The notes: generated by a model from the sequence alone, not told the origin. Shown: positions 7,688 through 56,457, numbered from the stretch's first letter. The stretch: 64,000 bases of DNA from Candidatus Kapaibacterium sp. (GCA_015490805.1 WFXC01000002.1:98437-162436); one strand, 5' to 3'. A program made the numbers and translations.

Positions 7688-7778
7688 CGAATCGGCTATA
7701 ACGATTTGCTGCTTCCCCTTGGTATAATTTTGGCGGGGAGCTTGCGTCTGGATAGCCAAAAGAGAAGATACGCGATCA

Positions 7779-18297: not shown

Positions 18298-18858
18298 TCA
18301 GAGTGGTTGCATCGCTGCTTCCGGACTGTGCGGGAACTGATGACGAAGACGTTCCAGCAGCGCCTGAAACGCCGGAAGATTATGATGCTGCAAATAATGT
18401 GCAATACCCTGCCAGTACAGCAAGGTGGCGCTCCGGGGATTGTCGGGATACTGTTCGACGGTTGCCGCTAACAACTGCTCGGCTTCCTGAAATTTGCCTC
18501 GCGTCAACAGCAAGCGCGCACGCGCAAGGCGCAGCACCAGCCGCAGGTCCTCTGCTGAAAGCACACCGTGCACCGCTTCAACCAGCGCTCCCCGGCGATC
18601 CAGAAAAAACATCGACGGAGTCCATATTGCCTGATACTGCCGCCGCAGTGCGGCTTCCTGATAAATATCCGCTTTGAGCAGTACAAACCATTGCTCCAAC
18701 TCTTCCATCACCTCCGTCACCGTATAGGTCTGGCTATAGAGTTTCTGACATCCCAGACATCCCTGTTTCTCAAATTGCAGAAAAATGCCCCGGCGTGTTC
18801 TGGTCGCCAACTGCTGTGCCTGTGCAAAATCCGTCTGCCAACGGCTCCAATCAACCAT
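18298..18858 (-). CDS. Thioredoxin-fold protein with a CxxC motif and a helical (TPR-like) C-terminal half.
   Basis: FLQFEKQGCLGCQKL (CLGC). About 186 aa. Overlaps the end of the upstream AI-2E gene by 8 nt. Confidence 0.5.
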   Translation of the reverse strand: MVDWSRWQTDFAQAQQLATRTRRGIFLQFEKQGCLGCQKLYSQTYTVTEVMEELEQWFVLLKADIYQEAALRRQYQAIWTPSMFFLDRRGALVEAVHGVLSAEDLRLVLRLARARLLLTRGKFQEAEQLLAATVEQYPDNPRSATLLYWQGIAHYLQHHNLPAFQALLERLRHQFPHSPEAAMQPL

Positions 18859-19963
18859 TTCCCGGAGATCCTGTTGTTACACTTGCTGGCTTTGATGCTG
18901 ACGGCGAAGCTGGAATCCCTCCCATCAGGACTGCCAGCGGTTTGAGCGGTGGAACATTTTCGCAAATAATTTTCAGGGTTGCAATCATCGGAACAGACAA
19001 CACCATACCGATTAATCCCCACAGCCATCCCCAAAAGATCAAAGCAACCAGCACCAGTAAGGGACTGAGGTCTAAACTCTCCCCCATAATTTTGGGCTCA
19101 ATGACATTCCCAATCACCATTTGCATTCCCGTCAGAATACCACCCAGCAATAATGCCAGCCCCAGATCTCCGAACTGAATCAAAGAGAACAGGGACGGCA
19201 ACAGGGTGGCAACGATAGATCCAAAGTTGGGAATGTAATTGAGCAGAAAAGTCAGCACACCCCACAGGAGGGCAAAATCAACGCCAAAGAATGCCAGAAT
19301 CAGGGTAGCAACACTGCCGGTTGCCAGACTGATCAGCGTCTTCGTGAAAATGTACTGTCGCACCTGATGGTCAATATTCCGAACAATGTGTTCCAGCCGC
19401 TCCGCATACTGCGGATAAAAGGCTTTCCGCAGCTTTTTTCCCACATCGCCGGTGCCAGCAAGGATAAACATCATAAAAAACAGCACCAGGAAAAAATTTG
19501 TCAGGAAGGCGAAAATGGAGCCCAGGCTGGATGTTAAAACGGTGGAGAGAGCAGAAATATCGATCAGTTCCTGCCAGGAGATGTCGGCAACCAGATCCCG
19601 AAGCTGTGACCGCTGGATGGTTTCCCAGAAGGACTGAATGAGAAAATCAATCCGCTGCTGGTAGCGAGGCAGCGCAGCGACAAAAGCATCAACGGTGGAA
19701 TACACACCCAATGCAAACAGCGTCACAATAGCAGCAACCGCAATAAGCACAATTGCAATGGTAATAGGCATTGGAATGCCTCGCCGCTGCGACAGCGACG
19801 CTACCAGCGGTTTAAAGAGGTAAGAAAGAAAGATAGCAATCACAAATGGAATCAGGATCGAGCGCAACTGGTAAAACACAAATCCAACGGCGACAGTTGC
19901 CAGAATGATCAGCGGAATGCCCAGAAGCCGAATTTCTCGAATGAGAGGATCGCGCCCATCCAT
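18851..19963 (-). CDS. AI-2E family transporter (UPF0118/PerM/YhhT-like permease).
   Basis: Eight TM helices. C-terminal signature MGESLDLSPLLVLVALIFWGWLWGLIGMVLSVPM. Start chosen at MDGRDPLIRE... (19963). Confidence 0.8.
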   Translation of the reverse strand: MDGRDPLIREIRLLGIPLIILATVAVGFVFYQLRSILIPFVIAIFLSYLFKPLVASLSQRRGIPMPITIAIVLIAVAAIVTLFALGVYSTVDAFVAALPRYQQRIDFLIQSFWETIQRSQLRDLVADISWQELIDISALSTVLTSSLGSIFAFLTNFFLVLFFMMFILAGTGDVGKKLRKAFYPQYAERLEHIVRNIDHQVRQYIFTKTLISLATGSVATLILAFFGVDFALLWGVLTFLLNYIPNFGSIVATLLPSLFSLIQFGDLGLALLLGGILTGMQMVIGNVIEPKIMGESLDLSPLLVLVALIFWGWLWGLIGMVLSVPMIATLKIICENVPPLKPLAVLMGGIPASPSASKPASVTTGSPGNG

Positions 19964-19970
19964 AAAAACA

Positions 19971-22900
19971 TCACCAACTGTATCGATACAACACTTTGAT
20001 TTCGTATTCACGTTGCTGGCTGAGTAAAGATTGTGTCTGAACTACACTCCGGCGAATCTGGACCACCAAACCACGGAGCGCTTCAACACTGGTCAAACTG
20101 CCCAGAGGAAAATTAATTTCAAACGTCGCACGACTGATGTCTCCCACCTCTCCTCCATACTGCCACAACACTCCCAAGGGTGCAATTTCGCCACGCAGCC
20201 GAATTTCCGCCTGTGTCAGGTCCCAATCTCCAAAGGTTTCTGATTGTCGGAGCACAATGTCAGCACTGCGAATAATGCCGGTACTTTGCAGCACCTCTGT
20301 GATAAACTTTGATAACCCAGAGGAAATGCCCGACGAAAAGATACTTGCCAATTGTGGATCGCTGCTTCCCTGCTGAAATTCTGCTTTCGTTTTACCGAAC
20401 AGAATCAAAAAAATACTATTTGCCTGCACTTCCTGTGGATCCCCTGTCTGTTCTTCCCCGTTAATGTAGTAAGCAAATCGCAACTTCGGCGCCTTTTTCG
20501 TGCCCTGAATGTAAATGACCACCCGGTATGTTTGCACATCTTGTTCTATAAAACGACGTCCGCGCAATTCTGCCACCAGGTCCAGCTCAGGGTTATCAAT
20601 GCCTGTTCGAAAAGAAATCCGCCCTTCGGCAGAAAAAATCCGATAAAACTTGTACGTTGATCCCTTGCGAACAATTAACTCACCATAGAACTCCGGTTTG
20701 CCCGTGAGCGGGTTGGTCATATAATACAAGGGCTCTGGAGCTTCTAATTCCGCCACCAATTGCTCGAAAGGACTGAAGTCCATTGTCACCAGAACGGATG
20801 TTCGAAAGTGAATGGTCAGGAAATAGTGCAGTCGATCTAAAAATGAAGGCTGCAAATTCGGTAGCTCCGCTACCGGTTTCGCCGTTGTATCTCCCACTGT
20901 CTGGTACAGTGCATCGGGGCAGTTGCGATCCAATCGCAGCCGCTTACCATTCCGGTACACAATCCGCTCGTAGCAATATGGCTGTTGAAAGTTTTCCATA
21001 TCCTGCTGTTCGGGGAAAAACAGCACCGCTTTCAGTACATCAATTTCTCCGCTCAACGATGGCAACTCCAAGGAACCGGATAATCGCAGTGGAGTGCGAG
21101 TTCGGAGGACAAGAGTACCATAGAGTGCCGGGTTGACTGCCTGCGTTGCCCGGCTCATTACCAGTAATTTTGCCGTGTGCAACTGGAGATCGAACTGCTT
21201 GAGGGAAAAGCTGGGGAGAAAAACAAAACCCCGAAGCTCTGCCCTGCCATCGGGAAGATCTTCAGGCATATTGTGCACATTCAACGCACTGATAAAAAGG
21301 GTATCTTTGCGAAACGTGATCCTTCCGTCGACACGGTACCGAATATTCGTAGCCGGGACGACGAACTGCCCCCGATCAATGTCTGCTTCTCCCCGATACA
21401 CCAATCGATCCGGCAGATATCCACTAAGCTGAAGCTGGAGTTGCCAGCTCCCTGTGAGATCCACCACAAAGGGAAGAACAGGCTGGAGCATTGCCAGCGG
21501 CATACGCTCAGCAACGACGCTTGCATACAGCGGGCGCGTTGTATCAATGGCAAACCGCCAGTCCTGAAAATTGATCTGGAGAGGCAATTGCTGCAACACC
21601 AATTGCAGCCGTGGCTTTGCGCGATCCGTCAACACTGCCTCTCCTTGCCAGATCTGGTATTGGTATCGCAGTGTACCGGCGAAAACCCCCAGCTTCTGAC
21701 GCTGGAAAAAGAGGGTATCCGTCGCCCATTGAATCTGAATTGTGGGTTCTGCCAGCGCACCCTGCACAACCATCTCACACCAGCGCACTGTGCCCTGCAA
21801 TGCACTGAGTAAAGCGGTACTATCCAGCTCAAAGATTTGCTGGAACAGAGGACGAAGCGCCTCATTGGTCAATGTTAGCGTCAGATCAGCCCAATCAGCA
21901 AACCGCCAGATTCCCCGAACACGAATGCTGTCCCCATAAATACCGGCAAATTCCACTTGTTCAAATGTTATGGCAGCCGGTGTTAGATAAGCCCAGACGG
22001 GGCGCGTCGCTCCCCACTGAAGCTGGCGATACCGAATGTTCGCAGTATCCAATTGCACCTGAAGTCGGGCGTTATCCGTAACCACTGTTCCTGCCAGTGC
22101 TAGCCGCATAGAATCAGAGGCAAAAGCCACCGTACCGCCAATGCGAACACTGTCTCCCCGACGGTGAAAAACCGCACTTCCCTTCCAGATATCCAGCCGA
22201 TCTACTCGCAGCCCGTAGGGTAAACGTGCAACGATGTGAACCTGATCCCGCTCAGGCTCCGGGAACAACCGCTGCTGAACGCTTCCCGCTATGGAAAAAA
22301 TCTGGATGGTATCGGTAGCTGTGTGGAGATCAAAATTCACAAGCTGGAGTGAATCAATGCGCAGCATGCTTGCTTGCCCAGGATATTGAATCACCCGTCC
22401 CGTCAAGGTTCCCTGAAACCAGAGGGAAAAATCTGGCAACAACGGCTGCAAGTAGGCAGCATTGAGCAAATGGAGGGAAAAGCGGCAATCCACAGAATCC
22501 TGAAACATCCGCTCTGGTTTTGCAGTGGTATCCGCAAAAAGCTGCACCGAACGAACAAAGTATCCTGCAAGCTCCGTGGAATGTTGCACCAGATTGTGCA
22601 CCAATGCTGCCCACCGAAAAGTTCCATCCAGACGAACGGCTGCAAAATCAGAACGCAGCTCTACTGACCGTCCTTCCGAACTTTGATTTGCCAGCAGTTG
22701 CACAGTGAAAGGCAGGAAGCTTCGATCTTTCCAATCGATGCGGTCCACCTGCGCCGTTAATTGCCCGACAAAATCATCCACCGTTGCTCCCTGTCCTGCT
22801 AAATGTACCTGTGCAGTCACCCGAAAGGGAAGCGAAGGAAAGAGCTGCTGCAATGCCAGTCGATCCATTTGGAGCGCAATATCATACCGGGGCGCTGTGG

Positions 22901-24473
22901 TATCCACAGAGACCCATCCCTGCATCTGTAGATTGCGTTGCAGCGTAGCATCGTGATAAAAGATCAAGGAATCCAGAGATAACCGCTGATCTCGATACTG
23001 GACAGCGAGCTGGAGCTTGCCAATGTGTCCGGACTCCACGGCGGAACGCCGAAGTGTCAACGCCAGTGTTCCCTGGCTGTTTTCCAGAGTCGTTCCCTGC
23101 AGACACCCCTCAATGGTACCGGTGAGCTGGGTGGACGGAAACAGTCGCCGACTGAATTGCTGCAAATTAAGCTGCTGGAACTGGAGTTGCACACAGTATT
23201 GATGTTTCGCAAGGTCATACTGCACCTGCCCTTGCAACCGAGCTGCATCAGCGAGCGCCTGCACTTCGAACGTTGCCCTAGCAGGCGTGCCATCGAATTG
23301 CAATTGCCGAATGCGCAGCGAATCCAGATCCTGAAGCATCGGAGGCAGCGTTACAGGGAAGAATCGTAGAAGATCCGGGCGAAAGATGACCGCCGATGCT
23401 GCTGCCGTAGTAAAGCGGGATTGTGACAGTGGGGTTTCCAGTACCCCAGTACCTCGAAGCTGGAGGAAACTGCTGCCAGCGGCAAGCCTAAACCGCCGAA
23501 TTGCTATGTGCCGTTTTTGCAGATCTCCAACTGCCTGAAGATACACCACGCCCTTGCCGGGCGGCAGTTGCGGCAGAAACAATCGCAACTCTTCCATACG
23601 GAGAGAATCCGCTTCTACCGACCACTGCACAGTAAGCGCATCCCGATCGCCAGCCATAAAAGCCCGAAGGCTGTCGGCCTGGACATTCAAACGGATCGAA
23701 GAGCCGGCACTGTGCACAATCGTATTGAAAACTTCTACCGCATCTCTAACTTTGCGAATGGTTCCCGTCGCATTGCGCAGCCGGAAAGTAGAGAATCGAT
23801 CAACGAAAGCAAGCTGTTTGAGAAACACTGTGATCGTCGTACCATCGGTGCTGCCAGCCAGTTGCGCTTTCAATGCCAGACTATCCAGTTGCAACCGATC
23901 CACTAAGAATCGACCAGCAGGAGCGCGTAACCAGCGTTCGTCAACGTGCACCAATTGACCGCTGCGGATTTCCAGTTGGTCGATCCGGTAAGACCACTGA
24001 GTGGTTGTCGATGCAATCGTATCCGGTCGTACAATGCGCTGATAATTCCACCACTGCTTGCCCCGACGACGATAGAGATAAACTTTCGGCCGATCGATCA
24101 GCAGTTCCGAGATCTCGAGGTGACGCCGAAGTACCGCTTCGATATTGTAGTCGATACGGATTCGAGGAATAAAGGCAAGCGTATCCCCATCGACTACCAG
24201 CAAGACGTTCTCCAGGCTCAATGTATTCCACAAGGTACCGCCAACATCTCCGATGTGGAAAGTGGCACCGGGCAAGAGCATCCGGTTAATCGAGGCTTCG
24301 ATTGTGCGCAGCACCAAGGAGCGGACCGGGGGAAGCTGAAACAATCCGATCACGCCTACCGGGAAGAGCAGCAGAAGCAATACGATAACTCCAACTATTC
24401 GTCGGAATGACCATCGAGATCGCCGGCTGTCCGACGATGGTTGTGTTGCTGCTGAGGATTGCTGTTCCGACAT
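19971..24473 (-). CDS. tamB: Translocation and assembly module protein TamB (AsmA-like, DUF490 C-terminal domain), 1500 aa.
   Basis: Single N-terminal TM anchor (IVGVIVLLLLLFPVGVIGLF), very long beta-rich body, C-terminal DUF490-like region ending ...YEIKVLYRYSW. Confidence 0.7.
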   Translation of the reverse strand: MSEQQSSAATQPSSDSRRSRWSFRRIVGVIVLLLLLFPVGVIGLFQLPPVRSLVLRTIEASINRMLLPGATFHIGDVGGTLWNTLSLENVLLVVDGDTLAFIPRIRIDYNIEAVLRRHLEISELLIDRPKVYLYRRRGKQWWNYQRIVRPDTIASTTTQWSYRIDQLEIRSGQLVHVDERWLRAPAGRFLVDRLQLDSLALKAQLAGSTDGTTITVFLKQLAFVDRFSTFRLRNATGTIRKVRDAVEVFNTIVHSAGSSIRLNVQADSLRAFMAGDRDALTVQWSVEADSLRMEELRLFLPQLPPGKGVVYLQAVGDLQKRHIAIRRFRLAAGSSFLQLRGTGVLETPLSQSRFTTAAASAVIFRPDLLRFFPVTLPPMLQDLDSLRIRQLQFDGTPARATFEVQALADAARLQGQVQYDLAKHQYCVQLQFQQLNLQQFSRRLFPSTQLTGTIEGCLQGTTLENSQGTLALTLRRSAVESGHIGKLQLAVQYRDQRLSLDSLIFYHDATLQRNLQMQGWVSVDTTAPRYDIALQMDRLALQQLFPSLPFRVTAQVHLAGQGATVDDFVGQLTAQVDRIDWKDRSFLPFTVQLLANQSSEGRSVELRSDFAAVRLDGTFRWAALVHNLVQHSTELAGYFVRSVQLFADTTAKPERMFQDSVDCRFSLHLLNAAYLQPLLPDFSLWFQGTLTGRVIQYPGQASMLRIDSLQLVNFDLHTATDTIQIFSIAGSVQQRLFPEPERDQVHIVARLPYGLRVDRLDIWKGSAVFHRRGDSVRIGGTVAFASDSMRLALAGTVVTDNARLQVQLDTANIRYRQLQWGATRPVWAYLTPAAITFEQVEFAGIYGDSIRVRGIWRFADWADLTLTLTNEALRPLFQQIFELDSTALLSALQGTVRWCEMVVQGALAEPTIQIQWATDTLFFQRQKLGVFAGTLRYQYQIWQGEAVLTDRAKPRLQLVLQQLPLQINFQDWRFAIDTTRPLYASVVAERMPLAMLQPVLPFVVDLTGSWQLQLQLSGYLPDRLVYRGEADIDRGQFVVPATNIRYRVDGRITFRKDTLFISALNVHNMPEDLPDGRAELRGFVFLPSFSLKQFDLQLHTAKLLVMSRATQAVNPALYGTLVLRTRTPLRLSGSLELPSLSGEIDVLKAVLFFPEQQDMENFQQPYCYERIVYRNGKRLRLDRNCPDALYQTVGDTTAKPVAELPNLQPSFLDRLHYFLTIHFRTSVLVTMDFSPFEQLVAELEAPEPLYYMTNPLTGKPEFYGELIVRKGSTYKFYRIFSAEGRISFRTGIDNPELDLVAELRGRRFIEQDVQTYRVVIYIQGTKKAPKLRFAYYINGEEQTGDPQEVQANSIFLILFGKTKAEFQQGSSDPQLASIFSSGISSGLSKFITEVLQSTGIIRSADIVLRQSETFGDWDLTQAEIRLRGEIAPLGVLWQYGGEVGDISRATFEINFPLGSLTSVEALRGLVVQIRRSVVQTQSLLSQQREYEIKVLYRYSW

Positions 24474-32696: not shown

Positions 32697-34052
32697 ATGA
32701 GAAAGGGCTGGTTGTCCCGACTGCAATGGTATTTGCTTGTCAGTCTGTGTGTCATTTTGCAACTTTCTGCGCAAGATTTCCATCCCATTCAGTTTACCAC
32801 TTATACGCTTCCTAACGGTTTAGATGTGATTCTCCATCGCGACACCTCCGCACCGGTAGTGGCGACCGTGGTATACTACAAAGTTGGCTCTCGCGACGAA
32901 GATTCACGCCGAACAGGCTTTGCCCACTTTTTTGAACATCTGATGTTCTCCGGTACCAAACATATTCCTCGGGGTAAACTGGATCAGTATATCCAAGAAG
33001 CTGGTGGCGAGCTGAATGCCTTCACCTCCCAGGACGAAACGGTGTACCACCTGCGCTTGCCGGCAAACGAGTTAGCCTTAGCACTCTGGATTGAAGCAGA
33101 GCGGATGCGACAGTTGATCATCGATTCTGTCTCCGTTGAAACCCAGCGGAAGGTGGTCAAAGAAGAACGGAAAATGCGATATGAGAACTCCCCGTATGGC
33201 GGATGGTTCGAAACGATGTATGCCCACCTTTTTGCCGGCTCATCATACCAATGGACTCCTATCGGCAAATCGCAGCACATTGACAGCGCAAAGATTGAGG
33301 AATTCCAGGCATTTTATAACCGTTACTACCAGCCCGGCAATGCTATTCTGGTCGTTTCTGGCGATTTTGATCCCCAACAGGTGCGCAACCTGATTGATGC
33401 TTACTTTGGACAGTACTCCAAAGCAACGCTTCCTCCTCGAAAACCAGTGACAATCCCACCATTACGGAACGGCTATCGGGACACCATTTATGATCCAAAA
33501 GCGCAGTTGCCTGCCATTTTCATCGGATTTCGGGGACCTAGATCTGGCGATCCCGATGCCTATGCCTTAGAAATGCTGACAACCATTTTAGCCGATGGAG
33601 AAAGCTCTCGCTTTTACCGTAATCTGGTCGATAAGCAATTGGCAGTGCAGGCGACCAGCTTCCTCAGCGATCGACAATATGCCGGACTTTTGGTGATGCT
33701 GGGCATTGCTGGACCGGGACAATCGCTGGATACCATCGAGCATGCCTTGTGGCGAGAAATTCGCCGAATTCAGCGCGATGGAATCACCGAAGAAGAATTC
33801 CGCAAAGCCCGCAACATTGCGGAAGCTCGCTTTGTTTCGGGCAAGAAACAGGTATTGAGTAAAGCGCTGAGCCTCGCAACCTACAAAGCCTACTATGATG
33901 ATCCCGGCAGGATCAACACCGAATTGCAGTATTATCTCAAAGTGACGCCGGCAGACATTCAGCGCGTAGCGCAACAGTACTTTGTTCCTGAGAAAGCAGT
34001 TGTCCTCCAATACCTGCCAGCAGCAATGCAACAAACCAAACACTCAAAATAA
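32697..34052 (+). CDS. M16 family zinc peptidase, catalytic subunit (pitrilysin/insulinase-like), secreted.
   Basis: Inverted zinc motif HFFEHLMF (HxxEH) plus downstream E. Signal peptide. Confidence 0.85.
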   Translation: MRKGWLSRLQWYLLVSLCVILQLSAQDFHPIQFTTYTLPNGLDVILHRDTSAPVVATVVYYKVGSRDEDSRRTGFAHFFEHLMFSGTKHIPRGKLDQYIQEAGGELNAFTSQDETVYHLRLPANELALALWIEAERMRQLIIDSVSVETQRKVVKEERKMRYENSPYGGWFETMYAHLFAGSSYQWTPIGKSQHIDSAKIEEFQAFYNRYYQPGNAILVVSGDFDPQQVRNLIDAYFGQYSKATLPPRKPVTIPPLRNGYRDTIYDPKAQLPAIFIGFRGPRSGDPDAYALEMLTTILADGESSRFYRNLVDKQLAVQATSFLSDRQYAGLLVMLGIAGPGQSLDTIEHALWREIRRIQRDGITEEEFRKARNIAEARFVSGKKQVLSKALSLATYKAYYDDPGRINTELQYYLKVTPADIQRVAQQYFVPEKAVVLQYLPAAMQQTKHSK

Positions 34053-34071
34053 ACAAAGGGAGCAGTGAGCA

Positions 34072-36168
34072 ATGCGATGGAACTCTGGATGGAACGCGTT
34101 AGGTATACTGCTGATCACGTGTGGACTCTACGCCCAGCAGACTATTGATGTCACGAAAAGACCAGAACCTGGACCACTAACAGCAGTCCGATTCCCCGCT
34201 TTCCAGACATTGACCCTATCTAACGGCTTGAAGGTATTTGTAGTCGAAGACCACGAGCAGCCGACGATTGCATTTCGGGTGCAAATTGGTGTTGGTTCCA
34301 TTGCCGATCCACCGGGCAAAGCCGGAGCAATGGAGATGCTGGTTGATATGCTCACAAAAGGAACCAAAACTCGATCGGCGCTGGATATTGCGCAAGCGCT
34401 GGATTCTATCGGTGCTTCGCTGACAACGAGCGCTGGCGGTGATGCTATGTACGTGGTGGCATCAGGACTCAAAAAATATAGCGGGCAGATTCTTTCAGTC
34501 CTTGCCGATATTTTGCAACATCCCACTTTCCCGGAATCGGAACTTCAGAAATATAAACAACAGGTGATTGCTGGGTTGCAACACGAAAAAACTCAGCCTT
34601 TCACTATTGGGAACAAACTGGCACGCAAAATTATTTACGGCAATAATCATCCGTACGCACAAAGCCCGACAGAGGAAAGCGTCAACGCAATTACGGCTGA
34701 GGATCTACGCGCTTTGCATCAGCAATACCTTGTTCCCAATCTCATTTCGATCGCTGTCGTTGGCGATGTAACGGCACAGGAAGCGCTGCAGTGGATAGAG
34801 CAATTTTTCGGAAACTGGAACCAACACGCCGCACAGATACCGGAGGTGCCAGAACCCCACGTCGCCCCTTCGGGTGTTTATTTCATTGAGCGACCCGGTT
34901 CCGTTCAATCCACCCTCATTGCAACCGCTCCGGCTGTTCCTTATGCACATCCAGACTACGAAAAACTCCGGTTGGCTTCGGAAATGTTAGGCAGCGGCTT
35001 TGGTGGGTGGTTCTTTAAGACGCTACGGGAAACGTACGGCTATACCTATACCCCTTTTGCTTTTCTGACCCGTGCGAAGTATGCCAACCGGTTTGTTGGC
35101 GCAGCGGATGTGCGGAATCCCGTGACTGATTCCGCTCTGACGGTGATGATCGATCAAATCGTCAAATTAGGCAGTCAGGGACCAACAGCCAAAGAGCTGT
35201 ACCGCATCCAGCGCCACACGGTCGGTTCCTATCTGATGTCCTTTGAGTCCTCCTCGTTTGTTGCCTCACTTATCCAGCGGGCAGACCTGTTCGGTGAATC
35301 CTTTGAGCACCTGAAACAATTCCCGCAGCGATATATGAGCTACACTCCAGCGGACGTCCAATCGGTCGCCGCTCGCTATCTGGCGCCGGGCAACCTGCGC
35401 TTTGTCATTGTGGGCGATCCTTCGGTGCAAGCAAAGCTGGCAAATTTCGGCAACGTTTACCGCTACGATCTGGACCTGCAGCCGATCACTGACACGGCAA
35501 CGTCGGGTGAAACGATCAGCTTTTCTGTCAACGAAATTTTAGATCGTTACGAAAAAGCAGTGGGTGGGAAAGAGAACATCCAGAAGATTCATACGGTGCG
35601 AGCCACCGGTTCTATCACGATGGCAAGCGGTCCGCAACAGTTTTCCGGCACGCTGCTCAAGGAAATCAAGCGTCCCGACCAGGGACACTACAAACTCAGC
35701 CTGCCAACGTTCACGCACGAAGTATGGGTTTCCAAAGGGAAAGTGTGGGAACAGGCAATGGGACGACCGGTTCAGCAAAAAACCGGAACCGATGCCGAAG
35801 AGCTTTCCCGGAATGTCCTGTCTCTGTTCCCGCTCCTGGATCTTGCCGATGCCGGATACACGCTCCAGGTCGATGGACTGCGTGGTGGGAAAATTGCTGT
35901 GAAAGCCACATCGCCCGGCGGCAAAGTTATTCGCTACTTTGTCGATCCGGAAACATACCTGATCAGTAAAATTCAGCGAACGATTGAGAATCCGCAGGGT
36001 GGCACAACGCCAATCACGGAGGAAATTCTGGAGTACACAAACGTCAACGGCGTCCAGTTACCGAAAAAGACCCAAACCCGGGTTGGACCAATTACCATCA
36101 CTGAAGAGATTCAGCAGTACGAGATCAACATTCCACTGGAAGATCAGATCTTTCAACCCTCAGAATAA
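34072..36168 (+). CDS. M16 family peptidase-like protein, non-catalytic partner subunit with a C-terminal extension of about 250 aa.
   Basis: M16 fold-like N-terminal half (GAMEMLVDMLTKGT) with the HxxEH replaced, i.e. an inactive M16B-type partner. Follows the catalytic subunit by 20 nt. Confidence 0.7.
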   Translation: MRWNSGWNALGILLITCGLYAQQTIDVTKRPEPGPLTAVRFPAFQTLTLSNGLKVFVVEDHEQPTIAFRVQIGVGSIADPPGKAGAMEMLVDMLTKGTKTRSALDIAQALDSIGASLTTSAGGDAMYVVASGLKKYSGQILSVLADILQHPTFPESELQKYKQQVIAGLQHEKTQPFTIGNKLARKIIYGNNHPYAQSPTEESVNAITAEDLRALHQQYLVPNLISIAVVGDVTAQEALQWIEQFFGNWNQHAAQIPEVPEPHVAPSGVYFIERPGSVQSTLIATAPAVPYAHPDYEKLRLASEMLGSGFGGWFFKTLRETYGYTYTPFAFLTRAKYANRFVGAADVRNPVTDSALTVMIDQIVKLGSQGPTAKELYRIQRHTVGSYLMSFESSSFVASLIQRADLFGESFEHLKQFPQRYMSYTPADVQSVAARYLAPGNLRFVIVGDPSVQAKLANFGNVYRYDLDLQPITDTATSGETISFSVNEILDRYEKAVGGKENIQKIHTVRATGSITMASGPQQFSGTLLKEIKRPDQGHYKLSLPTFTHEVWVSKGKVWEQAMGRPVQQKTGTDAEELSRNVLSLFPLLDLADAGYTLQVDGLRGGKIAVKATSPGGKVIRYFVDPETYLISKIQRTIENPQGGTTPITEEILEYTNVNGVQLPKKTQTRVGPITITEEIQQYEINIPLEDQIFQPSE

Positions 36169-36227: not shown

Positions 36228-38225
36228 TCATCGTTCAACAAAAACCCAGATGGGATTTGCTATCCACCGTTCAAACAGCATTTGTCCAGCGGGAACGGGA
36301 TAGTACCCTTCCAGTGGAACCGGCAATCCTTCGAAAGCAGCAACAGTCGTCGACGGGATCTGCCACCCCGGTGCCACCACATAGGCTTCCTGCAACCCGC
36401 CCAACGCCTCCAGCTTTGCTGACATTGTGGAGCGGAGTTGTTGCCACAGTGTGGAATGAAAGCGAACGGGATAAAAAGCGAAGCGGTATCGATGCTGCTG
36501 AAGTGCACCTACAGAATCGGATGGAAGTACCCGTACCGTTATGCTTCCCGTTGGCGTCTGAAACACCTGACCATCAAAATCCTCCACCTGAAAGAAAAAG
36601 TGCACCGGCGCAGCAGTAGTTTTCCACCACACAGGAAAACTTGCTAAGTTCCAATCGACGAACGATGGAGGATCGGAAAATCCCTGGAAGATCCATTTTT
36701 GCTCGCCAGCCGTTATGACAATACTCCACCGCTTCACCCCCGCTTCGGCAACCGTCCGCAGATAGAATCGCACTTTCTGAATGTTAGAGATCAACACTGT
36801 ATCCTGTTCGGAGCGCAGCAGCAAGGAATCCCGGTGGGGCATAAGCAGAAAGATATTGCTGGAAGAATGCGGAAAGGCAACGGAAAGTTGCGAAGGAGCA
36901 CCGGCTGCTTCGATCTCCGGAATCACAACGCAGGGGAGGCAGCGGGACAAAAACGATGCGAACCACTGCAATTGTTGGGCAAAGTTCGAAGAGCGAGATG
37001 CGGCTGCTATCCCAAACAACGTGAGAGTATCTGATGGCCGCAATCGTTGCAGTAACCACCGAACTGACGCTGTTCGGCGCGTGGCGCGGAAAAACCATTG
37101 CCACTGCTGCTGACACGGCTGTGCTACTGGTGGCGGGACTGCCGTATCGGCAATGATAATAGCGGACAGTGGAAAATCGAATCGGCGTTCAATCCCAAGG
37201 GTTCCTGCAATGCTCAATACGGTATCCTCTCGCCCACCGCGCGTAACAAGTTTCGGAACAACGGTTGCGGTCAGCAGCGAGCGGGGCATTGGAACTTTTC
37301 GGACGTAGGTCTGATGCACGATCGTTAACGCGATGGTCAAATCTCCAATGGCGTAATGCTCGGTCCGTGCCGTTTCTACCTGAAGCAAGACGGTATCAGT
37401 TGCAATCATCACATCGTAGGTCGTGGTCGTATCCCGCTGATACACTGTGTCACGAAGCAGTTTATGCTGAGGAGGGACTCCCAGTAAATCACCAGAAAGT
37501 TGCACTCCAAGACTGAAGGTCTGGATGCGCCAGTTAGAGTCCGGGAGCACTGCACCGATACTTCGCTGGTAGCGCAGAAAAGCAGAGGCTCGAAGGGTGG
37601 AGGTAATCTTGCCGAAGGTAGCAGCAAACTGGACCCACGGGGTCAGCAAAGGCTGCTGGATCGGCGATAGAATCCCCTCGGCACGCAACTGCTGCCTTGT
37701 ACCGTCGAGGAACGTAGCTTCTGCTGGTGATTGGATTTCTTCCCAATACTGAAAACTGCGACGGGGAAACCAGTACAAAAAACATCCGCCGGTAAAAGCC
37801 ACATTGTCGATGTGCCACGTTACCATTGGCGATATGCCCAGCGGGGCAATTGCCATCTGCACGCGGTGAGCAATGACACCGGAGACGATGGAATCTCCAG
37901 AGCGAATGGCTGGAATACGCTCGGAAGCCTCAAGTTGCGCTGACCAGTTGCTGTATTCTATGATACCTCCAACGGTCAATGTTCTACCGAGTCTATATCC
38001 TAAACCTATGCCGCCAAACCACGTGGCTTGAATCTGGTCGAACCGGAACGGCTCTGCAGCAGGCGGCTTCGAGAACATCGGGAACTGAGCCAATTCCAGG
38101 CGATGTTGATACCACGCCACGCCGGTATAAATCTGCACCTGCAACGGCTGTGCCCAGATGCTACTGGCAAGAATTGTAAAACCCAATAGTCCGATCTGCC
38201 ACCAGTTCCGGTCTGCTTCGATCAT
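36228..38225 (-). CDS. Large secreted/outer-membrane protein of unknown function. Paralog of the OmpA-family protein at 4746-6881, but lacking the OmpA domain.
   Basis: Signal-peptide-like start MIEADRNWWQIGLLGFTILASSIWAQ. Shared blocks with the paralog: LRDTVYQRDTT versus [11 protein letters not shown], and RWSIVITAGEQKWIFQGFSDPPSFVDW...FFFQVEDFDGQVFQTP versus [28 protein letters not shown]...[16 protein letters not shown]. Start overlaps the upstream stop as ATGA (38222-38225). Confidence 0.5.
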   Translation of the reverse strand: MIEADRNWWQIGLLGFTILASSIWAQPLQVQIYTGVAWYQHRLELAQFPMFSKPPAAEPFRFDQIQATWFGGIGLGYRLGRTLTVGGIIEYSNWSAQLEASERIPAIRSGDSIVSGVIAHRVQMAIAPLGISPMVTWHIDNVAFTGGCFLYWFPRRSFQYWEEIQSPAEATFLDGTRQQLRAEGILSPIQQPLLTPWVQFAATFGKITSTLRASAFLRYQRSIGAVLPDSNWRIQTFSLGVQLSGDLLGVPPQHKLLRDTVYQRDTTTTYDVMIATDTVLLQVETARTEHYAIGDLTIALTIVHQTYVRKVPMPRSLLTATVVPKLVTRGGREDTVLSIAGTLGIERRFDFPLSAIIIADTAVPPPVAQPCQQQWQWFFRATRRTASVRWLLQRLRPSDTLTLFGIAAASRSSNFAQQLQWFASFLSRCLPCVVIPEIEAAGAPSQLSVAFPHSSSNIFLLMPHRDSLLLRSEQDTVLISNIQKVRFYLRTVAEAGVKRWSIVITAGEQKWIFQGFSDPPSFVDWNLASFPVWWKTTAAPVHFFFQVEDFDGQVFQTPTGSITVRVLPSDSVGALQQHRYRFAFYPVRFHSTLWQQLRSTMSAKLEALGGLQEAYVVAPGWQIPSTTVAAFEGLPVPLEGYYPVPAGQMLFERWIANPIWVFVER

Positions 38226-40021
38226 TCCACAATCAGCAATCGTGAGCGCGAAAACCGACCGTACTGGCACACCAGCAGGTAGGCACCAGCATTGGGAAAC
38301 CAAGATCTGTCTAAGACAAAATTGAGAGGGAGACGCTGTACAGGAAGAGACAAATCCATTAGCAGCTCACCCGTGAGAAAGTACAGAGCAATATACACTG
38401 AATCAACCCGAACATTGCCTTCAATAGTCACAACGCTGCGATCCCGTAGCGGATTCGGATCAATCCGAACGGAAAAAGGGGCAGCAAATGGATCAATCAA
38501 TCGAGGCAGGTTGTTACGATACCATACACCCCGCAATTCCACGTACCCCGGTTCCATATACTCTGCCACCAATACTCGGTCGTGCTGCTGATTTTCAATC
38601 CACGCACTATCAATCTCTATCCAGGTTCCCAAAGCAGCACCGAGACATACCACAAAGGGAATCGCCGCCACAGTATCCAGCATCTGAAGCTGCGGCTGTT
38701 TCGGTACCAACGGGATCGTGAATCTCCCATATTCCCATCGACCACGTCGTTGAATCTCTACAGCGGTATCAGTCGCCCACAACAGGGTTGCATCCCAGCG
38801 AAGGTAGAGTATTAAGCGGGGGCTCTCAAGAGACTGCAGAATTTTTTGCGCCCCCGGATCCATCAACATCCAGATAGGGACAGCAATCGTATCGCCGCTA
38901 TAAGCCCCAATATCACTACTGCCAATGGTAAAAGTTGCCTGTGACGCCAACCCTTCACCCACCAGCCGAATTCTGTATTGACGCTGGCCATTCAGGAGAA
39001 AAATAAAATTACCTTCAACGACTCCGGGCGTTGTTGGCGTAAAGCGCAACTGGATCCATAAAGTATCGTGTGGCGGTAGCCACACTGTATCCGGTAGCGG
39101 TTGCAGCATTCGGAACACTGGTCGGTCGATGGTAATTGACATGAGAAATTGTTTAGAGTCGGTTCGGTTCACCAATACCAATGTGGTATCTTTTCTCTGC
39201 CGAAGGAAAGTTGCTCCAAAATCCACTATGGGAGTATAAACCAACGGTAGCGGTGGTGGTGTCTCGGGCACCGTCGCTTCTCCAAACACGACAATCCGTC
39301 CCCAATCCGGGGAACGAGCAACCCGGAAATAGAGATAGGTTTTGTGATATCCCGCAGTAGCAGGAGAAAAGGTGATCGTGAAAGTCCGCTGTTCTAAAGC
39401 CCGCAGTGTTGAATCCTGAAAAGACAGGGAAAAAGCAGAGGCAGCAGTATCCAGAAACAGGTAGAAATACCGATCAACTGGAAGATTGTTGGCAATCGTA
39501 AAGCTCGACTGAACCGTCGTTCCCACCGGCGTTGTTCCTACGAACACCACTTGCGGATAGCTTATGTGCTCTAATGCTGTATACTGCTCGCGTCCTTCTC
39601 CTACCAGATAAATGGAAAACATCCACTGTGCAGTGTCCGAGATCACCTTCACGCGCACAGCGCCCAGGTAATGCCGCTCTTGCCGCGGTGTAAATCCTAC
39701 CAGGACAACATATTGGTGTCCGGGCTGAAGTACCAGAACCGAATCCTGCGGATTCGCCAGATAAAACGCACCTTTGAATCCTGTTCGATTGGCCACCATT
39801 AAACGAAAAATCTGGACCTGTCGGGAGGTATTTTTCAGAATAACCAGATCCAGCTCAGAGCGATCGACTGCCACGGAGCCAAAATCAACGGTATCCTGTG
39901 CCAGAGGAACGCTGGATACTGGCAGCGTGTGTTCCTGTGCCCAGAGCACTACTGGGAGCATCAAAATCAGGCATGCCAGAAGGCGTTGAAGCCATTGACT
40001 GCTGCTCTGTTCGATCATCGT
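38222..40021 (-). CDS. T9SS-secreted protein made of repeated DUF1573/ASH-like Ig-fold domains with a type-A T9SS C-terminal domain.
   Basis: Signal peptide (LLACLILMLPVVLWAQ). Repeats such as VDFGSVAVDRSELDLVILKNTSRQ, VVFVGTTPVGTTVQSSFTIANN and IVDFGATFLRQRKDTTLVLVNRTDSKQ. CTD ...SVRIDPNPLRDRSVVTIEG...GAYLLVCQYGRFSRSRLLIVE. Start chosen at MIEQSSSQW (40021). Confidence 0.55.
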   Translation of the reverse strand, partial: TMIEQSSSQWLQRLLACLILMLPVVLWAQEHTLPVSSVPLAQDTVDFGSVAVDRSELDLVILKNTSRQVQIFRLMVANRTGFKGAFYLANPQDSVLVLQPGHQYVVLVGFTPRQERHYLGAVRVKVISDTAQWMFSIYLVGEGREQYTALEHISYPQVVFVGTTPVGTTVQSSFTIANNLPVDRYFYLFLDTAASAFSLSFQDSTLRALEQRTFTITFSPATAGYHKTYLYFRVARSPDWGRIVVFGEATVPETPPPLPLVYTPIVDFGATFLRQRKDTTLVLVNRTDSKQFLMSITIDRPVFRMLQPLPDTVWLPPHDTLWIQLRFTPTTPGVVEGNFIFLLNGQRQYRIRLVGEGLASQATFTIGSSDIGAYSGDTIAVPIWMLMDPGAQKILQSLESPRLILYLRWDATLLWATDTAVEIQRRGRWEYGRFTIPLVPKQPQLQMLDTVAAIPFVVCLGAALGTWIEIDSAWIENQQHDRVLVAEYMEPGYVELRGVWYRNNLPRLIDPFAAPFSVRIDPNPLRDRSVVTIEGNVRVDSVYIALYFLTGELLMDLSLPVQRLPLNFVLDRSWFPNAGAYLLVCQYGRFSRSRLLIVE

Positions 40022-40044
40022 GCTTTCCGGTGCAATGGCATCTT

Positions 40045-42168
40045 CTAATTCTGTTTTTGATACTGCTGCCGTAGCACCCGCCGCATAATTTTGTTCGAAG
40101 CAGTCCGGGGCAATTGCGACAGCAACCGGACATCGGCAATGTGGAATAACGGATTGAGCTGCTGGCGAATTGCGTTTTGAAATTGCTGCTGCCAATACGC
40201 TGGATCATCTGAATGCGATTCGACGACGGCAAAGATCACCAGTTGCTGCGGTCCCCCCTGCGGCGGCGTAATGCCCACCGCTGCTGTCTCCCACACACCT
40301 TCCAGTGCGTTAAGCACTCGCTCTATTTCAACGGAACTCACTTTGATCCCTCCCAGATTCATCGTATCATCCGCTCGCCCGTGGGCACGATAATACCAGC
40401 CGGGCAGCCGCTCCATTTCATCACCGTGCCGACGTAAGACGGGCGGAGCATCCCATTGCGCAAACTGATCCAATACCGGCGTGCCAAGGGCACCTACCAT
40501 TGCCCCCGATACTGGCGGTGTTCCGGCAAAATATTCCTGATGGTGATCGCGATTCAATAGTTGCACCGACAGCCCAATCGTGGGAGGTACAATAAAAATT
40601 TCTCCTCGATCTGACGGGTTGCCCGAATCATCCAGAATGACAAAATCCATTGCGATCGAGGGAGTGGTAAACGTGGAAGGAACGGCTGGATGGACTACTG
40701 TCCCCGTGATATAGCCCCCCCCAATCTCCGTTCCGCCACAGTATTCGATGACCGGTTTATAGTGCGCCTGGACCATCAGCCAGAAGTAGTCTTCTGCATT
40801 GGAGGCTTCACCAGTCGAGCTAAACAGTCGCAATTGCCGCCAGTCAGTATTCGCAGTGGCATTTTTTTCCCGCCACCGCTTCACCAGGCTGGGCACGACC
40901 CCCAGCATTGTTACCTGCGTTCGCTCGACAAACTGGCAGAATGCTGCCGTCGCAGGATTGCCATCGTAAAGTGCCATTGCTGCCTTGTTCAGCAGGCTGG
41001 CAAAAATCAGCCACGGACCCATCATCCAGCCGAGATTGGTGGGCCAGGCTAACCGATCATCGGGATGGATATCGTGATGAAAGAAAGCATCCGCAGCACA
41101 TCGAAGCGGCGTGGTATGATTCCAGGGAATGGCTTTCGGATCCCCGGTTGTTCCGGAAGAAAACAGGATGTTGATCATCGTCATTGGGTCCGTAATAGCC
41201 GGTTCAGGATCTGCTTCTGCGGTGAGAAATTCGTCCCACTGAATATCGCGAGGGCGGAGTTGTACGCTGAGTGTATCGTACGGCAGCACAATGGCAGTTT
41301 CTGCTGCTGCCTCCACAACCTTGTCGTATAGTGGTAGCGGTTTTCCACCTCGCACCTGCACATCCTGCGTTACAATCGTACGGGCACCGGCAATTGCCAT
41401 CCGCCGCTGGACTTCAGCCGGTGCCAGGCTATCAGCAATCGAAACTACCACACCCCCTGCAAGAATGATTCCCAGATACCAGGCAACTGCCCAGTGATTC
41501 ATCGGCATATAAATCGCAATGCGCTCGCCCGGCTGCATCCCCCGCTGCTGCAAAGCAGCAGCAATACGGTGGGTCCAGTACCACAGCTCTTCATAGCTCC
41601 ACTGCACTGATTGCCCATCTTCCCGCTCACCGATCAGCGCCAGAGTATCGGGATGCGCCTGGAAACAGCTCTCCACAATATTCATTTGCGCATCTGGCAA
41701 CCATACCGGCGTTTCCAGTTGCCCTGGTATCGTCACCACCGCTTCTGCTGGTTGCCGGAGACGCACGCCGATTTTTTCCAGAAACCACTGCCAGAAAGCT
41801 CGCCTGTCCGTCACACTCCAGCGGTGCAACGCCTCATAATGCTCAAACCCCAGCTCCGCACAGACCTGCGTAATGTTTGCCCGCTCGATCACCGCTGGTG
41901 ACGGAATCCACACTGGCGCCGGACGCTGCTGCGCATTCCAAGAGCGAAAGATCCACCGGTGCAGGAGCTGGTGGAGGGCAAAAGGGTAAGTGGGGGAAAG
42001 CTGCTGGGTTAAATGCAACCACTGTTTTTCAGGATCAGCAGATACTGCCTCCGCTGCTTGCAATGACGCTTCAATCGATGCCACTGCTTGTGAATCCCCC
42101 GACAGTAACGATGCAATGTGCGCTTGCAATTGTTCTCGTTCCATTTTCGCCATCAGTTGTTTTTCCAA
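40045..42168 (-). CDS. AMP-forming acyl-CoA synthetase (acetyl/acetoacetyl/propionyl-CoA synthetase-like) with an ACAS_N-type N-terminal domain.
   Basis: ERIAIYMPM, SSGTTGDPK-like P-loop (FSSGTTGDPKAI), conserved core through ...GGIKVSSVEIE. Confidence 0.8.
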   Translation of the reverse strand: MEKQLMAKMEREQLQAHIASLLSGDSQAVASIEASLQAAEAVSADPEKQWLHLTQQLSPTYPFALHQLLHRWIFRSWNAQQRPAPVWIPSPAVIERANITQVCAELGFEHYEALHRWSVTDRRAFWQWFLEKIGVRLRQPAEAVVTIPGQLETPVWLPDAQMNIVESCFQAHPDTLALIGEREDGQSVQWSYEELWYWTHRIAAALQQRGMQPGERIAIYMPMNHWAVAWYLGIILAGGVVVSIADSLAPAEVQRRMAIAGARTIVTQDVQVRGGKPLPLYDKVVEAAAETAIVLPYDTLSVQLRPRDIQWDEFLTAEADPEPAITDPMTMINILFSSGTTGDPKAIPWNHTTPLRCAADAFFHHDIHPDDRLAWPTNLGWMMGPWLIFASLLNKAAMALYDGNPATAAFCQFVERTQVTMLGVVPSLVKRWREKNATANTDWRQLRLFSSTGEASNAEDYFWLMVQAHYKPVIEYCGGTEIGGGYITGTVVHPAVPSTFTTPSIAMDFVILDDSGNPSDRGEIFIVPPTIGLSVQLLNRDHHQEYFAGTPPVSGAMVGALGTPVLDQFAQWDAPPVLRRHGDEMERLPGWYYRAHGRADDTMNLGGIKVSSVEIERVLNALEGVWETAAVGITPPQGGPQQLVIFAVVESHSDDPAYWQQQFQNAIRQQLNPLFHIADVRLLSQLPRTASNKIMRRVLRQQYQKQN

Positions 42169-54981: not shown

Positions 54982-56457
54982 ATGAAGAAACTCAAGATTC
55001 TGTTTGTTACAAGTGAAGCCTTCCCCTATGCAAAAACGGGCGGAATTGCGGATTTTACCACCGGACTGGCGCTGGCACTTCGAGCTCGAGGTCACGAAGT
55101 GCGAATGTTGCTTCCCCGCTATGGGTTTATCAGCGAGCGGAAAAACCGCATCCACGAAGTTCGTCGACTCAAAGAGTTACCAATCCCGATCGGCGATCGG
55201 ATCGAATATGCAAGCATCAAATCCTCCTCCATCCAGAATCCGAAAGCGAAAGTGCAGGTTTACCTCACCACCCACCCGGAATACTTCGATCACCGCTGGG
55301 GCATTTATACCGATCCGGATACTGGCGAGCCCTACAAGGACAATCACGAACGCTTCATCTTCTTTATGCTGTCTGCCTTAGAACTGTGCCGAACGCTCGA
55401 CTGGTATCCCGATATCATCCACTGCAACGACTGGGCAACTGCGCTGCTGCCAGTGTATCTGCGAACTCTCTTTCGAGACCAATTTCCCCGAACACATACC
55501 GTGCTGACAATTCACAACATTCGTTCCCAGGGAATTTTTCCTCTTTCTCCAACCTTTGCGCTGACGGGACTTCCTCAATCCGCTAAGGAACTGCTGACGC
55601 ACCGCCGCAAATGCAACTTTCTGAAAGCAGGCATTCTCACTGCACACGCAATCACCACCGTAAGCCCTACGTATGGCAAACAGATTCTGGAAGACAACAA
55701 GCTCAGTGGCGGATTGAGCCAGTTTCTGCAACAACGCAAAGATCACTTCTATCCCATTCTCAATGGCATCGACACCACCATCTGGAATCCCCGGAAAGAC
55801 AAGTGGATCGCCAAGAACTACGACATTCACTCCCTGGACCGAAAAGAAGTAAACAAGAAGGCATTGCTGGAAAAAGCACGACTGGAATATTATCCGGAAC
55901 GTCCGGTTGTTGGAATGATTTCCCGCCTCACGCCGGAAAAAGGGCTGGACCTCCTGCAAAAAGCAGCGCCGGAATTACTCCAGCTCAACTGCCAGTACGT
56001 TATCCTGGGCTCGGGGGAAAAACCGTACGAGGAATTTCTCAAAGCCTTTGCAACGGAACATCCGGAGCAGGTAGGAGTACGAATTGGTTTCGACGAAGTA
56101 TTAGCGCACCTGATCACCGCGGGAGCGGATATGTATCTGATGCCGTCGCGGTCGGAACCCTGTGGCTTGAACCAGATGTATTCAATGGCATACGGCACGG
56201 TTCCGGTTGTCCGGGCAACCGGCGGATTGATTGATACGGTCCAGGATTTCGATCCGGAAAAGAAAACCGGAACTGGCATTGTCTTCAAACCCTATACGGT
56301 CAAAGCCCTCATCGAAGCACTCCAGCGAGCTATAGAGCTATACCATAACAAATCCCTGTGGTATACGTTAATCCGCAACGGCATGAAGCAGGACAATTCG
56401 TGGGAGACCCGCGTCAAAGAATATGAAAAAGTGTATGCTGCTGCACTCACCGCTTAG
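54982..56457 (+). CDS. glgA: Glycogen synthase (GT5).
   Basis: KILFVTSEAFPYAKTGGIADF... N-terminal ADP-glucose-binding signature (KTGGL-type). About 490 aa. Confidence 0.9.
   Translation: MKKLKILFVTSEAFPYAKTGGIADFTTGLALALRARGHEVRMLLPRYGFISERKNRIHEVRRLKELPIPIGDRIEYASIKSSSIQNPKAKVQVYLTTHPEYFDHRWGIYTDPDTGEPYKDNHERFIFFMLSALELCRTLDWYPDIIHCNDWATALLPVYLRTLFRDQFPRTHTVLTIHNIRSQGIFPLSPTFALTGLPQSAKELLTHRRKCNFLKAGILTAHAITTVSPTYGKQILEDNKLSGGLSQFLQQRKDHFYPILNGIDTTIWNPRKDKWIAKNYDIHSLDRKEVNKKALLEKARLEYYPERPVVGMISRLTPEKGLDLLQKAAPELLQLNCQYVILGSGEKPYEEFLKAFATEHPEQVGVRIGFDEVLAHLITAGADMYLMPSRSEPCGLNQMYSMAYGTVPVVRATGGLIDTVQDFDPEKKTGTGIVFKPYTVKALIEALQRAIELYHNKSLWYTLIRNGMKQDNSWETRVKEYEKVYAAALTA

Follow-up and report, generated by a model that had tools for sequence, protein, structure and literature searches.

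In a 64,000-nucleotide stretch of DNA from Candidatus Kapaibacterium sp. (GCA_015490805.1 WFXC01000002.1:98437-162436; this whole stretch is called the window here), two overlapping genes on the minus strand, which we call A and B, raise the question of whether a secreted protein and an outer-membrane protein encoded side by side act together at the cell surface. Kapaibacterium is an uncultured lineage related to Bacteroidota. Retention of type IX secretion system (T9SS) cargo is understood in a few cultured Bacteroidota and by two routes, namely anionic lipopolysaccharide (A-LPS) for cargo with a type-A C-terminal domain (CTD), and PorP/SprF-like proteins for type-B cargo. Gene A (38222..40018, minus strand; 598 amino acids [aa]) encodes a secreted protein that combines ASH repeats, a cohesin-like region and a T9SS-type CTD, and gene B (36228..38225, minus strand; 665 aa) encodes a degenerate OmpA/OprF-like outer-membrane protein. 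The reading that we favor, in a case that we judge evenly balanced and that draws on sequence and analogy, is that A would be a T9SS cargo and B its dedicated outer-membrane partner, which would retain or position A at the surface.

This reading is carried by the recurrence of the pair in other genomes. A genome scan with an alignment of B returned loci with 85-88% identity to gene B in metagenome-assembled genomes of Candidatus Kapaibacterium sp., and the close relatives (L001, L002, L008, L009 and L027; L numbers denote the loci fetched for comparison) were simply syntenic with the window. We built a hidden Markov model (HMM) from the last 245 aa of A, comprising the cohesin-like region and the CTD (the A module), using four window-clade sequences only, and searched 1665 open reading frames (ORFs) of at least 90 aa in 36 sequences (35 fetched loci plus the window; 489 kb). 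Seventeen ORFs matched, and all 17 were the ORF immediately upstream of a B-family gene. Ten lineages were paired in this way (the window group, L003/4, L005, L007, L010, L014, L029, L031, L032/33 and L035); a broader model of the module added L018 and L034 (adjacent to B) and L011 (one gene away), and elsewhere detected only generic CTD tails. Generic ASH-repeat proteins similar to A matched only the ASH part of the model, never the cohesin-like plus CTD module. Across pairs, A and B either overlapped, as ATGA or TAATG, or were separated by about 8-20 nt, and one genome, IP29b_bin.46, contained at least two A-B pairs (L010 and L029). A comparison of gene neighborhoods had been proposed in an earlier description of the window made from its sequence alone (the sequence-only reading), and this comparison found at least 10 lineages with the pair co-conserved, where identity fell as low as 18-24% in the C-terminal module of A and about 20% in B, suggesting that A and B probably work together.

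The two genes are also tightly joined in the window. Gene A stops with TGA at 38224..38222 and gene B starts with ATG at 38225..38223 (ending at 36228), so that the two codons overlap as ATGA (38222..38225, minus strand) within the sequence ...ATTGTGGAATGATCGAAGCA..., or, in a wider reading, GTGGAATGATCGAA. This coupling, which the sequence-only reading had described, was kept in L001, L003 and L005, and the GTGGAATGA junction was identical in L003 and L005, even though their B proteins share only 37% and 29% identity with that of the window. The GC content of the A/B region (0.51-0.55) was like that of the remaining window, so nothing suggests recent import.

Directly upstream of A, on the same strand as had been reported, lies an AMP-forming acyl-CoA synthetase-like gene (40045..42168, minus strand; a 707-aa ORF from TTG, of which the true start is uncertain). 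It matched Pfam AMP-binding (E 1e-52), AMP-binding_C and ACAS_N, and its top NCBIfam match, acetoacetate-CoA ligase, scored 271 bits, far under the 639-bit cut-off. This gene is the first of a conserved three-gene block, as the order synthetase-A-B was common to three lineages (the window, L003/L004 and L005) in which all other flanks were different, and L003/L004 and L005 kept the ATGA overlap as well; this fits the earlier idea of a three-gene operon. The stretch separating the stop codon of the synthetase gene from the ATG of A (40019..40044, minus strand) measures 26 nt, where 23 nt had been given, and contained no promoter-like or terminator-like site on the minus strand; across the synthetase-A-B block such sites showed no excess over shuffled sequence. 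Identity to the L003/L005 orthologs was 74/66% for the synthetase, 43/32% for A and 37/29% for B. A and B therefore evolve fast and in step, their identities dropping in parallel while that of the synthetase is maintained.

The order and tight spacing kept in three lineages with differing flanks might also mean that the three genes form a functional unit, in which the acyl-CoA synthetase-like enzyme would supply an activated acyl group to modify A or B. We consider such a role highly improbable because the A-B pairs outside the window clade lack the synthetase: it was absent from all seven such pairs found by the clade-only model (L007, L010, L014, L029, L031, L032 and L035). Moreover, the enzyme is predicted to be cytoplasmic (no signal peptide was seen), its 66-74% identity between lineages resembles housekeeping evolution, and no acyltransferase is encoded in the block.

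Gene A had been taken to end at 40021, and the 599-residue translation from that position was used for our scans and structural model; the domain positions given here for A follow that numbering, from which 1 must be subtracted for the protein. The ATG of gene A is at 40018, giving 598 aa. In close relatives (compared in L001, 8180..8210), gene A was called as 606 aa, beginning MPLHRNSTMI..., 3 nt past the synthetase stop. The same ATG CCA TTG CAC CGG is also found in the window (40019..40047), but there it is out of frame and reads MPLHRKAR followed by a stop, and so gene A of the window must start at the internal ATG at 40018. Either the strains differ here by a 1-nt indel or one of the sequences contains an error.

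We assign to A, with high confidence overall, the order signal peptide, three ASH-type Ig domains, candidate cohesin-like domain and divergent type-A CTD. The N-terminus is signal-peptide-like (39938..40018, minus strand), reading MIEQSSSQWLQRLLACLILMLPVVLWA|QE by eye from the translation and without a predictor. It is followed by three ASH-type Ig domains (HYDIN/VesB/Cep192-like, or 'choice-of-anchor D'; 38948..39892, minus strand), where at least five DUF1573/ASH repeats had been counted from the sequence; both Pfam (about residues 42-143, 150-238 and 264-341) and an AlphaFold model placed three. Membership in the ASH/choice-of-anchor D group was indicated by HMM scores above the curated cut-offs for Cep192_D4 (E 2e-23, 83 bits, cut-off 35.5), ASH (E 4e-14, 53 bits, cut-off 27) and HYDIN_VesB_CFA65-like_Ig (E 8e-12, 45.7 bits, cut-off 25.5) in Pfam and for NF012200 choice_anch_D in NCBIfam (50.1 bits, cut-off 45); Pfam TMEM131_like_N also matched (E 1e-9). 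The model, made from a shallow alignment of 8 sequences and having a mean predicted local distance difference test (pLDDT) score of 64, contained three beta-sandwich Ig domains at 44-144, 158-250 and 260-358 (pLDDT about 70-90), and Foldseek matched it to the ASH arrays of ciliary central-pair proteins and to the SPD-2 domain of CEP192. Counting the cohesin-like region and the CTD along with the three ASH domains, A has about five beta-rich domains overall. A word-indexed homolog search with A returned only relatives at least 43% identical or generic ASH proteins.

The beta-rich region that follows (about 157 aa; 38477..38947, minus strand) was modeled at pLDDT below 50 (residues 359-515, from the shallow alignment), and its description comes from a family profile. 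The N-terminal part of a nine-sequence profile of the last 245 aa of A matched, among PDB sequences, the cellulosomal cohesins 2vn5 and 1g1k at E 0.0065; matches to PDB cohesins ranged from E 0.0065 to 0.05 and covered only about 55 residues. Pfam Cohesin (PF00963) matched three of the nine module-family members below its gathering score (best E 3.7e-4) and did not match the window copy. We therefore call this domain cohesin-like with moderate confidence.

The last 84 aa or so of A (38225..38476, minus strand), ending ...RLLIVE, had been called a type-A T9SS CTD. Profile comparison supported this assignment indirectly, but the domain proved divergent and was missed by curated models, with no match to Pfam PF18962, TIGR04183 or NCBIfam at E<=10 for either the full-length protein or its isolated last 90 aa. 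By hhalign, the window-clade tails aligned with seven C-terminal tails from neighboring loci, three of which score above the PF18962 cut-off (96.5%, E 7e-10, 86 columns), and the nine-sequence profile found, in PDB sequences, the T9SS CTD chain 8glk_D (75 residues; E 0.0027) and, at E 0.046, the PorU C-terminus (6za2). Profile homology by both methods thus points to a CTD in A, and we regard a divergent type-A CTD as predicted with good confidence. Por_Secre_tail was detected by Pfam in three of the nine members of the module family; the orthologous tail in L007 gave a sub-threshold match at full length (E 8e-5, 23 bits against 27) and the module-bearing relative L014 scored 14.9 bits, under the cut-off, while some unrelated CTD proteins in the sampled loci exceeded it (40.6 and 28.1 bits in L015, 28.8 bits in L011). 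The C-terminus of the model (516-598) formed a seven-strand sandwich with block-mean pLDDT of only 52-80, again from the shallow alignment; the type-A CTD is described (PMC11285876) as a compact 7-strand (3+4) Ig-like beta-sandwich. No T9SS components were found among the window ORFs scanned with Pfam, a scan that did not take in several of the window's ORFs. The T9SS is described across the Fibrobacteres-Bacteroidetes-Chlorobi (FCB) superphylum (PMC11205867 and PMC12421860).

Gene B, which had been put at 667 aa and offered as a signal-peptide-bearing outer-membrane protein belonging to a module that could not be recognized, is 665 aa long and is indeed such a protein, and it proved to be a divergent member of a large OmpA/OprF-like family. 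Its N-terminus (38151..38225, minus strand) is signal-peptide-like, reading MIEADRNWWQIGLLGFTILASSIWA|QP by eye from the translation, again without a predictor, and has no lipobox cysteine. An AlphaFold model of B (mean pLDDT 81.9) showed an N-terminal 8-stranded OmpA-like transmembrane beta-barrel (aa about 28-246; 37488..38144, minus strand), the feature expected of an OmpA/OprF-type protein. The barrel is followed on the same strand by a beta-rich segment with long strands in the model (aa about 255-359; 37149..37463), which opens with RDTVYQRDT; a degenerate OmpA_C-like domain of alpha/beta structure (aa about 371-463; 36837..37115); an Ig-like beta-sandwich with the motifs VRFY..AEAG..W...PP.VDW (aa about 471-567; 36525..36815), all-beta in the model with pLDDT near 90 across most of its length; and a second degenerate OmpA_C-like domain, also alpha/beta, without the Asp/Asn/Arg triad (aa about 575-665; 36231..36503). 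By analogy, the roughly 400 aa after the barrel should be periplasmic. From the barrel, the OmpA_C-like domains and the loss of the triad we conclude with high confidence that B belongs to a known kind of protein, the OmpA/OprF-like proteins of the outer membrane, of which it is a divergent member whose wall-binding site is degenerate.

Curated models did not reveal this relationship in B itself: neither the whole protein nor its halves matched anything in Pfam, NCBIfam or PDB sequences, and PF00691 OmpA did not match B, its C-terminal half or the clade members P0008 and P0010 at E<=10. A Gln stands right after the predicted signal-peptidase site in A (39932..39937), in B (38145..38150) and in many B-family relatives (...WA|Q, ...AQ...); according to PMC5837995, a Gln after the cleavage site is the 'Q-rule' of Bacteroidetes for signal peptidase I substrates. 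The structural check that had been proposed for the partner, with a beta-barrel, a beta-propeller and a PorP/SprF-like protein as candidates, supported the barrel but neither of the others. A propeller was rejected, and a PorP/SprF protein was rejected by sequence, with no match to PF11751 or TIGR03519 in B itself or among 40 relatives (Pfam, E<=0.01) and 8 members (NCBIfam), and by cargo type, with an adjoining cargo tail that is type-A-like; the only signals of type-B (CHU_C) were a match at 0.17 in one of the nine module members and one at 0.014 in the non-module protein L011up2. We also rejected PorE (NF052230), which only the OmpA domain of B paralogs matched, at 21-40 bits against 600, and the window clade not at all.

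The extent of the B family became apparent only with an exhaustive search of 1.84 billion representatives, which returned 147 clusters (at 50% identity) at E<1e-3, mostly 650-730 aa long and collinear with B; a word-indexed search had returned only three close relatives. An alignment of 40 sequences showed the N-terminal barrel, an almost invariant RDTxYxRDT, an OmpA-like stretch (...LSxxRA...ENRRVE), the Ig-like domain (VRFYP..SEAGV..W...PP..DW) and a classical OmpA_C motif (GxTDxxGxxxxNxxLSxxRA). The most conserved motif, RDTVYQRDT in the window, has D259, T260, R264, D265 and T266 invariant or nearly so in two family alignments, and in the Ig-like domain W500 was invariant in 40 of 40 sequences, with G496, G515, P520, W525 and D549 nearly so. 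The first OmpA_C-like domain of B lines up with the initial OmpA-like stretch found in typical members, but the motifs of that stretch are absent from it. Pfam OmpA matched 26 of the 40 members and OMP_b-brl_2 matched 7, neither of which matched B, and for 8 members NCBIfam held no model for the family, returning just generic OmpA-domain matches far under their cut-offs.

The peptidoglycan-binding triad is formed in PorE by Asp576, Asn584 and Arg591 and is found in other OmpA-family proteins (PMC7192894). At the corresponding columns, 27 of the 40 relatives have DNR and B has '-EE'; none of the five window-clade members has the triad, the strand with the TD motif being deleted in each. This loss suggests that B probably no longer binds peptidoglycan canonically and may instead use its periplasmic domains for contacts with proteins. 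Loss of the triad was not correlated with pairing with A, since paired B proteins occur both with the triad (L007 and L029) and without it (the window clade and L031). The window encodes a second B-family member of 711 aa (4746..6881, minus strand; family HMM 653 bits) with an intact OmpA domain (Pfam OmpA E 3e-18), which is not preceded by an A-type gene. The ortholog of this paralog is in L016 (94% identical), and the same-strand ORF upstream of it (6848..7822) had a C-terminal sequence that looked MazG-like, by eye only.

That the most conserved parts of B (RDTxYxRDT and the VRFY..AEAG..W Ig-like domain) fall in the predicted periplasmic region, and that loss of the triad in the window clade would free domains for protein binding, could be explained if B were a secretion or assembly helper, with its periplasmic Ig-like and degenerate OmpA-like domains handing A to the T9SS translocon or linking cargo to PorK/N-type machinery. 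PorP-PorE complexes belong to the T9SS and are proposed to make a link of this sort (PMC9143113). However, several paralogs occur per genome, some with no cargo genes nearby, and, apart from the generic OmpA domain, B does not resemble PorV, PorP or other known T9SS components, so that we consider a helper quite unlikely.

If B is instead the surface partner of A, as we favor, the synthetase gene, A and B would be transcribed together, and the ATGA overlap would couple translation of B to that of A, so that both proteins are made together. Both would be exported by Sec, given their signal peptides as read by eye. A would then be carried across the outer membrane by the T9SS by means of its CTD, and B would insert in the outer membrane as a barrel and hold or position A at the cell surface. 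Contact might occur between the cohesin-like plus CTD module of A and long extracellular hairpins of the barrel. In typical family members, the OmpA_C-like domains with an intact triad would tether the complex to the wall.

Several points weigh against a dedicated partnership. The evidence for it consists of gene order, and because the loci were sampled through B, the specificity of the A module for B holds within those loci only. In studied species, cargo with a type-A CTD is anchored via A-LPS and needs no dedicated barrel partner, and the CTD of the window copy of A fails curated HMMs. If B has OmpA topology, then by analogy most of B would be periplasmic and mature A extracellular, leaving only the barrel loops for contact. 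Furthermore, about half of the informative B-family loci had no upstream A-type gene (the window paralog, L012/13, L017/24, L025 and L020-23/26 among them), so that B-family proteins must have a role for which A is not needed. The upstream neighbor can also encode an unrelated secreted protein, as with the WD40 propeller of L030 or the generic CTD proteins of L015 and L011.

These last observations would be expected if A and B were co-regulated but independent envelope proteins, B being a general structural OmpA/OprF-like protein that serves integrity or as a small pore, and A an ordinary T9SS adhesin anchored in the usual way. On this view, operons for the envelope or secretome would be where B genes are usually located. 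A gene for an extracytoplasmic function (ECF) sigma factor lies next door in many loci, suggesting a shared envelope regulon; adjacency would then reflect shared regulation, not binding. We judge this alternative rather unlikely. The A module is strikingly specific, since a B gene directly follows every one of the 17 ORFs matched by the clade-only model; even very divergent pairs keep a stop/start overlap or a gap of 8-20 nt; and A and B diverge fast and in parallel. Were the pair merely co-regulated, its annotation would be routine, as an ASH-repeat T9SS substrate beside a degenerate OmpA-family protein. The partnership that we favor had been put forward in the sequence-only reading as a surface adhesin with its anchor or partner; it is compatible with all of the evidence and strengthened by the comparative data, but it remains unproven. 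Placement of B in a well-known family with an unrelated role had been named as an outcome that would count against it, and although the family is indeed well known, an outer-membrane tether is compatible with the role of an anchor.

The surroundings of other B-family genes yielded further observations. In L030 (978..5152), a B-family gene has an ATGA overlap with an upstream gene for a 680-aa WD40 beta-propeller, which is not an ASH/cohesin-like cargo. The upstream partner in L034 gave a faint BNR/propeller signal and matched the A module weakly. At least seven loci (L010, L014, L029, L031, L032/L033, L035 and L012/L013) have, just downstream of the B-family gene and on the opposite strand, an ECF-type sigma-70 gene (about 183-212 aa) and an adjacent gene of about 290-360 aa, which both run toward its 3' end; the second of these contains TPRs in L032, and no Pfam match was recorded for it in L029, L031 and L035. 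This arrangement, which is not found beside gene B in the window, suggests ECF control of B-family envelope operons. The L011 and L014 contigs are labeled as uncultured Hyphomicrobiales bacterium (GC 0.38 and 0.48) and encode Por_Secre_tail-type tails, ranging from weak to passing, as well as B-family proteins. As such tails and B-family proteins are unexpected for an alphaproteobacterium, these bins or labels are probably wrong.

Elsewhere in the window, two genes for M16 peptidases (451 and 698 aa; 32697..36168, plus strand) converge on the 3' end of gene B, an arrangement kept in the close relatives L001 and L002 and not in L003 or L005. A 1500-aa TamB-like protein (19971..24473, minus strand; Pfam TamB E 9e-16, DUF748 sub-threshold at 30 bits against 50), a component of the translocation and assembly module, is encoded adjoining an AI-2E family transporter gene (18851..20011). 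Two candidate ORFs in overlapping frames (56423..57667 and 57511..58872, plus strand; 414 and 453 aa), neither of which matched Pfam at E<=1e-4, lie downstream of a starch/glycogen synthase gene. The product of another gene (61200..62855, minus strand), a pyridine nucleotide-disulphide oxidoreductase that begins with a heavy-metal-associated domain, has the architecture of mercuric reductase (MerA).

If the partnership of A and B is real, the pairing would be another cargo-specific anchoring solution in Kapaibacteria and their relatives, and a role would be assigned to a large family, of at least 147 clusters at 50% identity, for which there is no curated family model. The repeated loss of the triad within this family offers a natural comparison of wall-tethered and untethered versions. 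A broader proposal, which we think unlikely as it stands, is that the B family as a whole comprises cargo-specific T9SS partners, each a single-chain functional equivalent of PorP plus PorE, and so constitutes a third mode of cargo attachment after A-LPS linkage and PorP/SprF binding. Such B proteins would recognize the cargo family with the cohesin-like plus CTD module and attach this cargo to the outer membrane, and mostly also to peptidoglycan, with several copies per genome in Kapaibacteria and related FCB lineages, often beside an ECF gene, and with the window clade detached from the wall. The specific, recurrent pairing of the B family with this cargo family may be new. Our literature search found nothing specific on a cohesin-T9SS-OmpA module or on the T9SS in Kapabacteria, and its coverage was incomplete, which makes it weak evidence of novelty.

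The closest precedents are the systems of type-B cargo. Type-B CTD cargo proteins (PG1035 and SprB) bind PorP/SprF-like barrels encoded by adjacent genes, and for non-motile type-B cargo a further tie to the wall has been proposed via PorE-like OmpA_C proteins encoded next door (PMC9143113). The A-B pair resembles these systems (PG1035-PorP-PorE and SprB-SprF) in that a gene for a T9SS cargo adjoins one for an outer-membrane beta-barrel, several pairs can occur per genome, the barrel is associated with an OmpA_C-like peptidoglycan-binding element, and the proposed role is cargo-specific surface anchorage. Unlike PorP/SprF, the barrel of B has an 8-stranded OmpA/NspA-like fold and no match to the PorP_SprF HMM; unlike PorP plus PorE, barrel and OmpA_C-like domains are fused in one polypeptide; unlike type-B cargo, A has a CTD that resembles type A (PF18962); and the peptidoglycan triad of type-B/PorE systems is lost in the window clade. 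With PorE itself (PG1058, a peptidoglycan-binding lipoprotein of the T9SS), B shares an OmpA_C-like domain, and B paralogs weakly match NF052230, but PorE, a lipoprotein, contains TPR, beta-propeller and CRD domains and lacks a barrel, whereas B has a cleavable signal peptide and a barrel instead. Compared with the OmpA/OprF family, B is about twice the length of OmpA and has in addition the beta-rich RDTxYxRDT segment, the Ig-like domain and a second OmpA_C-like domain, while the window copy fails the OmpA HMM, lacks the triad and belongs to no NCBIfam family model. Finally, A is like the T9SS-dependent ASH or 'choice-of-anchor D' proteins of the FCB group in its signal peptide, ASH-type Ig repeats and C-terminal sorting domain, and differs from generic proteins of this kind in its cohesin-like plus CTD module, which among the sequences examined occurred only beside B-family genes.

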